The notes beneath the pieces are model-generated. The model was given only the letters and a program-made list of their open reading frames with translations, did not search any database and was not told the DNA's origin. From Leucoraja ocellata (taxonomy: Eukaryota), in NCBI GenBank assembly GCA_036785375.1, contig JAWMAR010000377.1, forward strand, positions 1,736,001-1,800,000: a stretch of DNA of 64,000 bases, given 5' to 3'. A program made the translations under genes and the position numbers. Positions 41,599-47,164 of this stretch are shown here, piece by piece. The number at the start of each line of letters is the position of its first letter. Position 1 is the stretch's first letter.

Positions 41599-41941
41599 CT
41601 ATTACTAACTGCACAAAAGATTAGAAACTGTGCATTGCTATTACACTTATATCATGCGAAAGAACATTTTTTAGAAGTCTTAGTTGCAAGTACTGACATG
41701 TGAAATATATTAGAAAATGCACTTTCCGTTATACTTTAGTCATTCAGTCCATCAGATTCAAATTTCAGAAGCAGACAACAACACGCCACTGACCAAAGAT
41801 TCAGATTCAGATTCAGATTCAGATTCAGATTCAATTTTAATTGTCATTGTCAGTGTACAGTACAGAGACAACGAAATGCATTTAGCATCTCCCTGGAAGA
41901 GCGACATAGCAAACGATTTGAATAAATAATAATGTGTCCGG
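41599..41941 (+). repeat. Left copy of 343-bp direct duplication flanking the ERV
   Basis: ctattactaactgc...aatgtgtccgg is repeated at 46822-47164, with no differences seen by eye. Confidence 0.92.
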
Positions 41942-42461
41942 ACGTTTCTCTCTCACATCGGTTGTTTCGACAATAATCGACCAGGCACCAGGGTTGCTTT
42001 AAACGTACGTTTTATTGAGCAGGAATCTCCACACAGGTTACAACCTGGCAAAGAGTCAAGCTGCCTGCCCTTAATTGCAAGGCTCTTTATATGTTAATGC
42101 CACCGTTTAGCACCTCCCACATTCCCCCCCGATCAAAGGACCAACACGTTGGGAGAAACAGGAAACCAAGTATGTCCATATAAGGGGATGTTAGAGGAAC
42201 CACGCATAATCTCAGACCAGTACATTCCTTAGTCTTTCTGGCTAGGGGGGGGTTGTGTATTCCTCAATCTTGTCAGACTGGGCCTGTGATCCTTTATTCA
42301 TGATACACAGTAATTGCAAGACATTGTGATTTCCTTAATTGCAGCCGGTTCCAGCAAGTCTGGTCAGCAGCCATCTTATGTCCTTTGTTTCAGTCTACCT
42401 GGCCAACCATTTTGTCTTTCAGAACAATCTTATAACATTGATTCAGAATTTCTATTCATCA
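41942..42461 (-). repeat. ERV 3' LTR, lacking the last 9 nt of U5
   Basis: Matches 46302-46821. The terminal tgttgattc (plus-strand reading) is absent. Confidence 0.92.
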
Positions 42462-42479
42462 TTCCCCCCTTTTGCCATT

Positions 42480-43038
42480 CTTATGGCAACACTCATAGTC
42501 CATTTAAAAGTCCCATTCGCCGAAACTCGTAACCTTTTAGTTCCCTGGCCAAGGCTTCTTGGACCGTCCAACCTTTATCCCCAATTCTACTTCCTCACGC
42601 ACTTCATCGTTTTCGCTGTCGCTGGGGAATGGTAACAGTCTCTGCTGCTCACGCTGTAAGACCATCATTCGTACAGAACTTTTAGCTTCCTCGGGGGTGG
42701 TCCCCAAACCCAATAAGGCCACCATTAATCGGGCTTGACAGGGACCGGATTTTTGTCCTGGCACTTCACCAGTCGTTCAGTTCTGCCCCATACAGGGGAT
42801 GGGGTAAACAGGGAGGTAACTGATGTCATTTGTGGATAACAAACCACCTGCCCCTTCCCGAATAGCTCGTTGTGTCCCTGGATGAATAAATTGGAGTTTT
42901 CTCGTTCCCCTCTCTTTCCTCGTTTGTTCCGTCCGTATTCAGGCTTTGTCCATTTCCAGCCAAAACCGATTAACCTGGCAGTGGTCGCCACACATATTAA
43001 TGCCACAAAGACCCTGATCTCAGTGAATTATTTCGTAT
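42480..43038 (-). pseudogene. Truncated env-like remnant
   Basis: Lies between pol and the PPT and follows the strong acceptor ttttcactcccttgtcttcacag (AG at 43039-40). Hydrophobic stretch then RNKRGKR. Assignment rests on position only. Confidence 0.45.
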
Positions 43039-43090
43039 CTGTGAAGACAAGGGAGTGAAAAAGAAAAGAACGTGCAATTTCATGGCAAAA

Positions 43091-44428
43091 TTAATTCGTG
43101 CCCTGCTTTCCGTGGACTGGATCCCCCTCCCTGACCTCGACCTCCCCCCTTTGCTTGGTGTCACCAACCACTTTGCAATGGTGCAAATGCACCCATGCCG
43201 ATCGTCCTTCTACCTTTACTGCGGTGGGAGTGGTGAGGAGAACCTGGAAGGGGCCCAACCATCGAGGAGAAAGGGTGTCCTTACAAATCCAATTCTTAAT
43301 CAACACATAAGAACCCGGGGTGATCCGTCCATTAACGGGAAATTCTATGTCGCCCACATAAGCGGCCTTGACCTCCCCATGAATCTCACGCAGGGCCCTT
43401 GTAAGGGCAGGGACGTAGGGGACCATCTCCTCCGTCATGTGATGCAACGTCATTGTGGCCGGGATAATGTCTGTCCAGGGTTTGCACAGAGGTCGGCCAT
43501 AGATGATCTCTGCAGGAGACAACCTTGTCTTCCCTGCTGGAAGGACTCTGATCTGGAACAAAGCAACGGGCAACATTTTAACCCAGGTGGAGCCTGATTG
43601 GTCCACCAGCTTGGCAAGCTTGGTCTTCAGGGTCTGGTTCAAACGTTCCACCATTCCTGCAGCTTGTGGGCGATAAGCACAATGCAGCCGCTGGGTTACG
43701 CCCAGCTGTCTGTACAATTCTTTATTGATAGCGGCAATGAAGTGAGGGCCGTTATCCGAACTGATGGTGTTTGGAACCCCGAAACGAGGAACAACCTGCC
43801 GTAATAAAATAGACACCACCGTAGAGGCAGTGCAATCAGTGGTTGGAAAGGCTTCAATCCACCTAGAAAACACATCAACAATAACAAATACATGTTTATA
43901 ACACTGACACTTAGGCAAATCAATAAAATACATCTGCAAGGTTTCAAATTAGCAGTAGGTAATGGAGTACGACCCGTCTGGCAGACAACTCCTTTACCAG
44001 GGTTGTGTGTAGCACAGGTGAGGCACCGCGCACTAGTTTGGGCTGCCAAAACCTTGTCGAGGATGCCACCATGCCTGTAAGAGAGCGTCTACTAGCAAGG
44101 TGGCCCCACAGTGAGTGGCTAACTGTAGGCAATCAACGACCCAGGTCGCTAACTGGTCTGTCATACAGGTCTGTCCGGCCGGCGTGAGCCACAATCCAGA
44201 GTCAGCCTTCCGACAGCCCAGCTGCTCCCATTCCATTATAACATTAGCAGAGGCGTCCCCCTGTAAGAGCAATACATCATTTATGGTTGGCATAGGTTTC
44301 TCAGATTCAGACGAGCCCATATAAAGGCTTTTCACCTGCCACATCATACTACCCACCACTTTAAATCTACCGCGTGAAGCACACTTAGCCGCATCGTCAG
44401 CCAACCTGTTACCGAACAGGACTGGCAA
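43091..44428 (-). pseudogene. pol: ERV pol 3' part: RNase H end plus integrase, frameshifted
   Basis: GNRLADDAAK; HCG..WWHP..CLTC zinc finger; IVDVFSRWIEAFP, SDNGPHF, AYRPQAAGMVERLNQTLK; PRWLGPFQVLLTTPTAVKV (GPY/F). The expected first catalytic Asp reads Tyr (QMYFI). Confidence 0.93.
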
Positions 44429-44429
44429 C

Positions 44430-44974
44430 GGGGGCAGTCTGGTTCAACGGGGGTGCTCCACGGACTCCCCAAGGATAATCCTCTACCTCCTCCTCGTCAT
44501 CACCTCCCAAATCTATGCCAGCCACCGACTTACGTAAGTCTTTATCTACCTTGGCCATATTTTGTCTCTCTCTCTCTCCTGACGATCCTTACTTTCCTTA
44601 GCATGCCTGCATTCCTGTTTTAATACTGTCACTGACTTCTCCTGACCCCCCTCAGTCAGGGGTATTCCTGTTTCAAGGCATTGCTCTGCCAACTGGCCGT
44701 TAAAGACCGTGCCTTTTCTTTGTTACAATGATCGATCCACAACTGAATGGCCCTTTTACATTTTTTTTTTTTTTTTTTTTAATCCGTTCTCCATATTACA
44801 CTTTGGGCTCTTGATAACACACTCATAACCCCCTTCAGGCCATTCATCCTTCCCCAGTTTATGAAAGAGTCCTCCCGACATACGCCTAAAGGTCTCCTCC
44901 ATTTCTGGATGCAAGAAACATAGCTGATGTAATGGCCGGTCTGGGTGACAACTGGTGTCCATACCATTACCCAT
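44430..44974 (-). pseudogene. gag: ERV gag 5' fragment (matrix-like)
   Basis: MGNGMDTS (Met-Gly start)...WPEGG directly after the leader. Broken near a poly-A run and fused to the RNase H end by deletion. Confidence 0.65.
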
Positions 44975-45004: not shown

Positions 45005-45965
45005 TTCAGGGTTAACCGCGAGTCCTTGGTTCCACCGTATCTCACTCGGTCACTTCAATTCCTGACCTTCGCGTGGAGGATTTCCTCTCTTAACAACCAG
45101 TCTAAGGCGGACTTTCTGTGAGATACGGAGGTACTTTGGTCTCGGCTAACACTCAACACTTGCTAACTCTTTCAGGGTTAACCTAGAGCCCTTGGTTCCT
45201 CCGTATCTCACTCGGCCACTTTAAAGTGGACTTTCTGTGAGATATGGGGGTACCTTGGTCTCAGTTAACGTCTCAACACTAGTTAACTTTATTACACAAT
45301 TATCACAACAAAATTTCAGGGTTAACCGTGAGTCCTTGGTTCCGTCGTATCTCACTCGGCCACTTTAAAGCGGACTTTCTGTGAGATACGGGGGTACCTT
45401 GGTCTCGGTTAACACTCACCACTTGCTAACTCTTTCAGGGTTAACCTAGAGCCCTTGGTTCCTCCGTATCTCACTCGGCCACTTTAAAGTGGACTTTCTG
45501 TGAGATATGGGGGTACCTTGGTCTCAGTTAACGTCTCAACACTAGTTAACTTTATTACACAATTATCACAACAAAATTTCAGGGTTAACCGTGAGTCCTT
45601 GGTTCCGTCGTATCTCACTCGGCCACTTTAAAGCGGACTTTCTGTGAGATACGGGGGTACCTTGGTCTCGGTTAACACTCACCACTTGCTAACTCTTTCA
45701 GGGTTAACCTAGAGCCCTTGGTTCCTCCGTATCTCACTCGGCCACTTTAAAGTGGACTTTCTGTGAGATATGGGGGTACCTTGGTCTCAGTTAACGTCTC
45801 AACACTAGTTAACTTTATTACACAATTATCACAACAAAATTTCAGGGTTAACCGTGAGTCCTTGGTTCCGTCGTATCTCACTCGGCCACTTTAAAGCGGA
45901 CTTTCTGTGAGATACGGGGGTACCTTGGTCTCGGTTAACACTCACCACTTGTTAACTCTTTCAAC
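45005..45965 (-). repeat. Tandem array of 7 hairpin units in the ERV leader (263-bp higher-order period)
   Basis: Units start at 45005, 45171, 45315, 45434, 45578, 45697 and 45841. Types of 144 and 119 bp alternate. Confidence 0.92.
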
Positions 45966-46271
45966 TAGTTAACTTCCTATACACAGTGCACTCCTCTTAT
46001 ATACCGTCTACGGTCCCCCTCTACGGGGTGTTTTATCCGCTCGATCAGACTAGGATAATCCTCGAGACGGCCCTATCCCCGTGCCCACAACCGGAATGTT
46101 CGGATGTCGTCCCACCAACTGACGCAAGTCAGCGAATTACCCTGCTACGCCGGGATACGAGGAAGGACCAAGAGGAGATTTAACTAAATCTACTCACTTG
46201 GCTGCGCACCCTTCACATCGATCCCGTCGCCCAGTGGATTCACTCGCCGGCTCGATCAGTCGCTGGTTGAC

Positions 46272-46289
46272 ATCCCACTTCTGGCACCA
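46272..46289 (-). promoter_or_regulatory. Primer binding site, tRNA-Leu-like
   Basis: TGGTGCCAGAAGTGGGAT lies 3 nt after the LTR end. It differs at one position from the TGGTGTCAGAAGTGGGAT Leu PBS as recalled from memory. Confidence 0.8.
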
Positions 46290-46292
46290 AAA

Positions 46293-46821
46293 TGTTGATT
46301 CACGTTTCTCTCTCACATCGGTTGTTTCGACAATAATCGACCAGGCACCAGGGTTGCTTTAAACGTACGTTTTATTGAGCAGGAATCTCCACACAGGTTA
46401 CAACCTGGCAAAGAGTCAAGCTGCCTGCCCTTAATTGCAAGGCTCTTTATATGTTAATGCCACCGTTTAGCACCTCCCACATTCCCCCCCGATCAAAGGA
46501 CCAACACGTTGGGAGAAACAGGAAACCAAGTATGTCCATATAAGGGGATGTTAGAGGAACCACGCATAATCTCAGACCAGTACATTCCTTAGTCTTTCTG
46601 GCTAGGGGGGGGTTGTGTATTCCTCAATCTTGTCAGACTGGGCCTGTGATCCTTTATTCATGATACACAGTAATTGCAAGACATTGTGATTTCCTTAATT
46701 GCAGCCGGTTCCAGCAAGTCTGGTCAGCAGCCATCTTATGTCCTTTGTTTCAGTCTACCTGGCCAACCATTTTGTCTTTCAGAACAATCTTATAACATTG
46801 ATTCAGAATTTCTATTCATCA
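46293..46821 (-). repeat. ERV 5' LTR
   Basis: Reads TGATGA...ATCAACA on the minus strand, with TATAAA at 46446-51 and AATAAA at 46371-76. Confidence 0.92.
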
Positions 46822-47164
46822 CTATTACTAACTGCACAAAAGATTAGAAACTGTGCATTGCTATTACACTTATATCATGCGAAAGAACATTTTTTAGAAG
46901 TCTTAGTTGCAAGTACTGACATGTGAAATATATTAGAAAATGCACTTTCCGTTATACTTTAGTCATTCAGTCCATCAGATTCAAATTTCAGAAGCAGACA
47001 ACAACACGCCACTGACCAAAGATTCAGATTCAGATTCAGATTCAGATTCAGATTCAATTTTAATTGTCATTGTCAGTGTACAGTACAGAGACAACGAAAT
47101 GCATTTAGCATCTCCCTGGAAGAGCGACATAGCAAACGATTTGAATAAATAATAATGTGTCCGG
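46822..47164 (+). repeat. Right copy of 343-bp duplication
   Basis: Same as 41599-41941 and continues into a poly-G run of the Rex1 3' UTR. Confidence 0.92.

Follow-up and report, generated by a model that had tools for sequence, protein, structure and literature searches.

The 5' leader of a very young class I endogenous retrovirus (ERV) family in the skate Leucoraja ocellata carries a tandem array of long, self-complementary units between the primer-binding site (PBS) and gag. The array is real and family-wide, and two other class I families in the same assembly repeat different hairpins in the same interval. We propose, giving the idea an even chance of being right, that the array is a multimerised packaging/dimerisation element of the Psi region. 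The window analysed here comprises 64,000 nt of L. ocellata DNA (GCA_036785375.1, contig JAWMAR010000377.1, positions 1,736,001 to 1,800,000 of the forward strand); its features are collected in Table 1.

The provirus and its family

The array belongs to a 4.9-kb class I provirus on the minus strand, whose PBS we take to be of the tRNA-Leu type. The 10-mer at its likely splice donor lies at +97, versus +105 to +107 in 11 of the 14 loci of a related family (family 3, see below). Downstream, the gag remnant is followed by a deletion of ~4.2 kb that reaches into pol. The 343-bp host duplication and the truncated 3' LTR resemble the outcome of an aberrant one-ended integration, for which a similar pattern has been described (PMC5041404); an assembly error or a later rearrangement are the alternatives. 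Most other family copies, unlike this provirus, have intact ends and 4-bp target duplications.

Table 1. Features of the provirus in the window (window coordinates) and of hairpin repeats at related loci (locus coordinates)
Feature	Position	Strand	Remarks
5' LTR (TG...CA)	46293..46821	-	520 nt identical (100%) to 3' LTR; end normal
Primer-binding site	46272..46289	-	read directly; 92-95% match to site in related family
Likely major splice donor, GTGAGT	46192..46197	-	10-mer common to related family at similar offset
Hairpin unit 1, type A	45847..45939	-	
Hairpin unit 2, type B, perfect 14-nt apical palindrome	45703..45795	-	
Hairpin unit 3, type A	45584..45676	-	
Hairpin unit 4, type B	45440..45532	-	
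Hairpin unit 5, type A	45321..45413	-	
Hairpin unit 6, type B	45177..45269	-	
Hairpin unit 7, long type, 140 nt, predicted branched apex	45011..45150	-	ends 37 nt before gag ATG
gag 5' remnant	44416..44973	-	open for 64 codons up to its first in-frame stop
pol 3' remnant with integrase (rve, MLVIN_C matches)	43091..44425	-	
env splice acceptor (predicted)	43039..43040	-	polypyrimidine tract + AG
env remnant and polypurine tract	42462..43027	-	internal deletion of ~1.1 kb
3' LTR, last 9 nt missing	41942..42461	-	
Duplicated host segment, 343 bp	41599..41941; other copy 46822-47164	.	100% identical, flanks provirus on both sides
UUGAGA-loop hairpin repeats	L105:4039-4230, L110:3276-3632, L114:3302-3454		several hundred pattern matches in assembly
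CAUU-NGG-AAUG hairpin array	L176-L190 leaders, e.g., L178:2570-2935		

The family is a class I (gamma/epsilon-like) ERV with an MLV-like reverse transcriptase (RT) and integrase. Among solved structures (PDB), those closest to the RT of a longer member are the MLV and XMRV enzymes, and the Gag protein of a longer member contains one zinc knuckle. In four copies (L061, L062, L066 and L067) the gag and pol frames are split by a single stop, giving gag-stop-pol in one frame, and most two-LTR copies are flanked by 4-bp target duplications. The nearest database proteins belong to two skates, Leucoraja erinacea (99%) and Amblyraja radiata (96%). In 27 of the 28 LTR pairs compared there are 0 to 5 mismatches, which makes this a very young family. 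Integrase was found in at least 136 copies at 94% identity or more and capsid in ~15, which indicates that most members are internally deleted and moved in trans.

A word-seeded homologue search with Gag gave no match, and the open-access literature, as listed, contained no description of this family or of hairpin arrays in the leaders of cartilaginous-fish ERVs. The class I zebrafish element ZFERV reportedly has tandem repeats in its leader, as the skate family does; no account of hairpins in them appeared in the same listings.

Outside the provirus, the window contains an inverted repeat of 40 nt (95%) at 48536-48635, with a related copy at 49430-49491; it is probably a small non-autonomous element.

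Sequence and predicted folding of the array

A sequence-only reading of this DNA had described seven related units of two alternating types between PBS and gag, at alternating spacings of 144 and 119 bp. Both points were borne out: six 93-nt cores alternate between types A and B with a 263-bp period at 98% identity, and one 140-nt unit follows. In viral order the donor (46197) precedes the array (45939-45011), which precedes the gag ATG (44973). The units are also self-complementary, as claimed, and in the viral sense fold far better than per-unit shuffles, with z scores of -6.2 (A), -4.8 (B) and -3.7 (long unit); of 200 shuffles each, 0, 0 and 1, respectively, folded as well. Fixed 120-nt windows elsewhere in the provirus reached z = -2.1 at best. 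Folding of the antisense strand is as good or better (A, -6.0; B, -6.8; long, -3.8). Folding does not pick the array's strand.

Details of the hairpin were revised in part. The lower stem, given previously as about 33 bp, does have 33 opposed positions, but these comprise 27 predicted pairs and six mismatches (four A.A and two others), with a 2-nt bulge in addition, and the longest stacked helix in the viral sense measures 8 to 10 bp. One part of this stem is a near-symmetric ACCAAGG x ACCAAGG element, and the internal loops are near two-fold symmetric. Repeated short palindromes and inverted motifs occur in the units; the apical 14-nt palindrome is perfect in type B, but imperfect in type A and absent from the long unit. 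That unit has 47 additional nt in its apex on an intact stem, which had been read as a sign that structure is what is conserved. Its stem sequence is kept too, with arms 84 to 91% identical to the other copies (except the B spacer side, 65%), and it is therefore no proof that structure rather than sequence is conserved.

When the whole array was folded freely, units paired with each other rather than forming seven separate hairpins, at -358.6 kcal/mol versus -279.1 kcal/mol summed for the seven isolated hairpins without spacers. Seven separate hairpins would thus be, at best, the co-transcriptional form. Intermolecular duplexes of units were also predicted to be more stable, by 11.6 kcal/mol, a gain that any hairpin makes and that is hence not specific.

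Three additional donor-like GTGAGT sites lie within the array (45945, 45682 and 45419). They occur as GTG|GTGAGT just before each A unit, so that the array also multiplies possible U1 sites.

Distribution of the array across the family

The array is not an expansion created by the assembly. Near-full-length array matches numbered ~41 among the 40 candidates scored of 199, a 14-mer from the unit matched 1,024 times versus 61 for its reversed control, and 30 RNA reads (run X24) crossed unit-to-unit joints. Four isolated 14-mer matches (L231-L234) were rejected as proviruses.

We surveyed 56 integrase-anchored loci, 55 of which reached the PBS, with a counting script that may miss units bearing indels. 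All 55 retained units, from 1 to 9 with a median of 5: one unit at 2 loci, two at 5, three at 7, four at 12, five at 15, six at 5, seven at 3, eight at 3, and nine at 3. The long unit came last in 49 of the 55. Loci anchored on the array itself had up to 10 units, and 16 to 17 were counted in a provirus with an internal duplication (L016/L017, C37). One-unit proviruses include L079 and L219, the latter having two identical LTRs flanked by a 4-bp target duplication. One 2.5-kb element (L076), consisting of two LTRs, the leader with its array and little else, is a minimal leader-only derivative; it is nested in another copy in opposite orientation.

Unit number is similar in capsid-bearing and deleted members (mean, 5.3 in seven copies of the former versus 4.6 in the other 48), with no excess in the deleted ones. 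The array was indeed kept while most of gag, pol and env was deleted, as the sequence-only reading had it, but this retention is not specific to the array: the entire leader is kept, with PBS and donor in 55 of 55 proviruses and the gag ATG in 53 of 55.

Comparison among copies revealed no covariation in the units, with 0 of 27 pairs supported among the 16 unit types, out of 67, that recurred at more than one locus. Across 249 units, the single two-sided change was at position 23/69 (16 U-A versus 153 C-G and 80 C.A), and common variants break viral-sense pairs 16 and 25. The family is too young for covariation to show. Common variants and transitions at wobble pairs favored each strand about equally. 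No relatives of intermediate divergence were found in the assembly, where capsid matches drop from 89% to 48%, and the 89% capsid locus (L175) gave no leader match.

Hairpin repeats in related skate ERV families

Related families were found in the same assembly by searching with a shark RT and with capsid. Family 2 (L105-L111, L113 and L120; RT identity, 60 to 72%) and a separate locus, L114 (53%), carry ~3 to 5 short hairpins in the last 160 to 430 nt before gag, each with a symmetric UUGAGA x UUGAGA internal loop and predicted tandem G.A pairs. In these hairpins 7 of 10 pairs show changes in both partners, compared with 0 of 500 shuffles and 0 to 2 pairs in slid controls, and 97.5% of cells pair; the test leans favorable, as its 12 hairpins were hand-picked (from 15, of which 3 were left out after misplacement by the aligner) and the structure was read from the same sequences. 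The UUGAGA hairpin is a stronger candidate for a structured RNA than the array itself. It covaries and has no counterpart in Rfam, where five related-family loci gave no match.

Family 3 comprises 14 loci (capsid identity, 43 to 48%) with the same PBS as the provirus. Its leaders contain 2 to 10 copies of a short CAUU-NGG-AAUG hairpin after the donor and before gag, and none were present in ~52 kb of flanks; the motif was chosen by eye from these loci themselves.

Neither motif occurs in the window provirus. The UUGAGA model (R1) gave a best E value of 1.6 in the array and no match in L061, L066 or L144, and of 32 sequence comparisons between hairpins of the sister families and the array, only 2 passed shuffles, both through one antisense 14-mer. 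In five older relatives that are closer by RT (L119, L128, L132, L134 and L139), the 500 nt before gag held no such hairpins. A rough scan of 20 loci of a distant Gag_p30 group found upstream tandem repeats in several, no comparable hairpin array and no R1 match.

Transcription and splicing

Reads were taken from three raw 2026 poly(A)/single-cell runs of organism A, perhaps not the species of the window, and covered 1 to 5% of each run. The family is transcribed in the viral sense and, by read mapping, polyadenylated at 46354-46357 (133 reads, run X22), ~15 nt behind AATAAA. Single-cell reads over the array were mainly viral sense, with few antisense. An A-run in the gag remnant (~44760-44781) draws internal priming in single-cell libraries, and the resulting viral-sense peak equals that of the true 3' end in height.

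In bulk poly(A) data, summed depth was 59 to 110 over two reference units, onto each of which several units collapse, versus 14 to 28 over unique leader; the array appears not to be clearly depleted. Reads crossed intact units, and no pile-ups of read beginnings or ends were seen inside units in the poly(A) reads. Template-switch-oligo ends at L081 1377 and 1464 and at window 46489-90 lie outside the units, where the sequence is G-rich, and were set aside as likely artifacts.

The donor proposed earlier gains support from its 10-mer, common to most family 3 loci, but its joint to the acceptor did not appear among 777, 789 and 792 reads aligned to a one-unit copy. Loose read ends at the equivalent of the acceptor in locus L081 (3318) were found in 15 reads of X24 and one contig of X1. 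By eye, the upstream sequence joined there does not come from the array leader; host exons splicing into proviruses are possibly its source.

A putative packaging/dimerisation element

The sequence-only reading left the choice between a retroviral pri-miRNA cluster and a multimerised packaging/export element. The latter agrees with the position of the array and with the related families, from which we infer its function. Three families have independently come to repeat a hairpin in the donor-to-gag interval, and a multivalent module for Gag binding and dimerisation is the proposal that fits this best.

In MoMuLV, Psi is reported to lie between the splice site and the gag ATG, with a core of three adjacent stem-loops; its nucleocapsid (NC) binds strongly to three stem-loops and weakly to one or two, and its pseudopalindromes form extended duplexes upon dimerisation (PMC7599994, PMC5874298). 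The skate family resembles this system (DIS-1/SL-A, DIS-2/SL-B, SL-C and SL-D) in belonging to class I, in its single-knuckle NC and in a structured interval between donor and gag ATG. The interval also has several palindrome-bearing stem-loops, for which an extended-duplex switch is predicted, as it would be for any hairpin. It differs in that one 93-nt hairpin is repeated 1 to 10 times over up to ~1 kb, with symmetric, A.A-rich loops. As the units contain neither of the MLV hallmarks, the GACG tetraloop and the UCUG NC site, we do not class the array as an MLV-type Psi; by analogy, it likely works like one.

The array would act on unspliced genomic RNA as a signal for dimerisation and for packaging by Gag. 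Each unit would fold locally during transcription; palindromic apices and complementary arms would then let units of two genomes swap into extended duplexes, while the purine-rich internal loops would serve the nucleocapsid domain of Gag. Additional units would raise avidity. RT switching templates from one 263-bp repeat to another would raise and lower their number, selection would hold it above one, and gag-deleted copies, including the provirus studied here, would depend on the signal for packaging in trans. Counting against this proposal are the lack of covariation within the family (0/27), the antisense fold that is as good or better, the outcome of the sequence comparisons with hairpins of the sister families (2 of 32 passing shuffles), the lack of such hairpins before gag in the five older relatives with closer RT, and unit numbers that are no higher in deleted copies than in capsid-bearing ones.

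A bolder extension, which we consider conceivable but doubtful, is that the three co-resident class I families multiply unrelated hairpins (the 93-nt A.A-mismatch stem, the symmetric UUGAGA tandem-G.A loop and the CAUU-NGG-AAUG hairpin) as private codes, each recognised by the family's own Gag and made stronger or weaker through the number of repeats. If true, the three motifs of these neighboring families would reveal how ERVs that share a host avoid mixing their genomes. Detailed knowledge of packaging signals is confined to a few mammalian and avian retroviruses, and a leader with 1 to 10 copies of one hairpin offers a natural dose series for what Gag recognises.

Alternative explanations

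The array could instead be a cis-acting element for export or splicing control of unspliced RNA, comparable to a constitutive transport element (CTE) and multimerised for strength, which we regard as unlikely. Its place in the predicted env intron, its near-symmetric internal loops and the donor-like GTGAGT ahead of each A unit suit such a role; loop symmetry is also a feature of the CTE, which is located 3'. Simple retroviruses are described as exporting unspliced RNA through cis elements such as the MPMV CTE and the RSV DR, the latter itself repeated and flanking src (PMC3856414), whereas the skate array lies in the 5' leader. It matches neither element in sequence nor any known export family in Rfam. 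The three unrelated loops of the three families are easier to reconcile with a partner specific to each virus than with a single conserved host protein.

We rate as equally unlikely that template switching multiplied a single ancestral leader hairpin and that the extra copies are nearly neutral. The wide range in unit number (1 to 10, and 16 to 17 in the duplicated locus), the existence of one-unit proviruses and the youth of the family are compatible with this, and stem-loops promote template switching: in SNV, a 110-bp direct repeat was reported to be deleted in 41% of cycles, and stem-loops raised deletion and switching (PMC3187697). At such rates, deletion should dominate among 263-bp repeats that are 98% identical, yet only 2 of 55 proviruses have one unit, and each of these may have arisen in its own founding reverse transcription. 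Although gains also occur, a median of five near-identical units despite rapid loss of direct repeats suggests selection for more than one. Neutral amplification also has to explain why two other families repeat hairpins in this interval as well.

The pri-miRNA half of the sequence-only reading, with small RNAs arising from the env intron, short Pol III transcripts or antisense RNA, holds up weakly, and we consider it less probable still. The overall length is right: 33 stem positions approximate the ~35 bp of a Drosha substrate, for which Microprocessor motif determinants have been described (PMC6298569). However, the stem is heavily interrupted, with no helix longer than 8 to 10 bp, and of four Microprocessor motifs the viral sense shows only the basal UG, in A and long units; apical UGUG, CNNC and mismatched GHG were not found. 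The units were read with the spacings at which these motifs normally lie, and many genuine miRNAs lack some of them. The antisense strand offers CNNC in its flanks at +4 to +6 in addition to its better folding, but antisense reads over the array are scarce. For Pol III, each A unit is followed by a T4 tract and the six short units contain an 8-nt A-box core, but T4 follows A units only and neither a full A-box nor a B-box was found on either strand in a search for canonical boxes. ARAGORN identified no tRNA, and the provirus had no Rfam match at E <= 5.

Retroviral precedents for miRNAs avoid or tolerate a cost that the array would incur. BLV and foamy viruses are described as relying on short Pol III transcripts, in foamy viruses dumbbells, which leaves their genomes uncut (PMC3993851), and ALV-J produces a Drosha-dependent miRNA (E/XSR) from Pol II RNA and tolerates the cleavage in its 3' region (PMC3911700). 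These systems share with the array several long imperfect hairpins in a retroviral genome and, after A units, the T4 tract. The skate array, in contrast, consists of near-identical repeats in the 5' leader, not in an LTR or the 3' region, where cropping would sever the genomic RNA downstream of the cap and ahead of gag. If small RNAs were made, this would be a miRNA cluster at a site where cleavage should cost the virus its genome. The poly(A) reads that span intact units, at the depths given above and with no processing ends, also argue against cropping, and the same-interval hairpins of families 2 and 3 are too short for Drosha.

Finally, the array might act as DNA, an enhancer or insulator inside the element made up of repeated inverted binding sites, of the kind known in gypsy-type elements, but this is the least probable reading: folding of both strands and the richness of the units in short palindromes and inverted motifs would accord with it, whereas families 2 and 3 repeat strand-specific hairpins, one of them with G-U pairs and covarying stems, and family 2 already carries enhancer-type repeats in U3.
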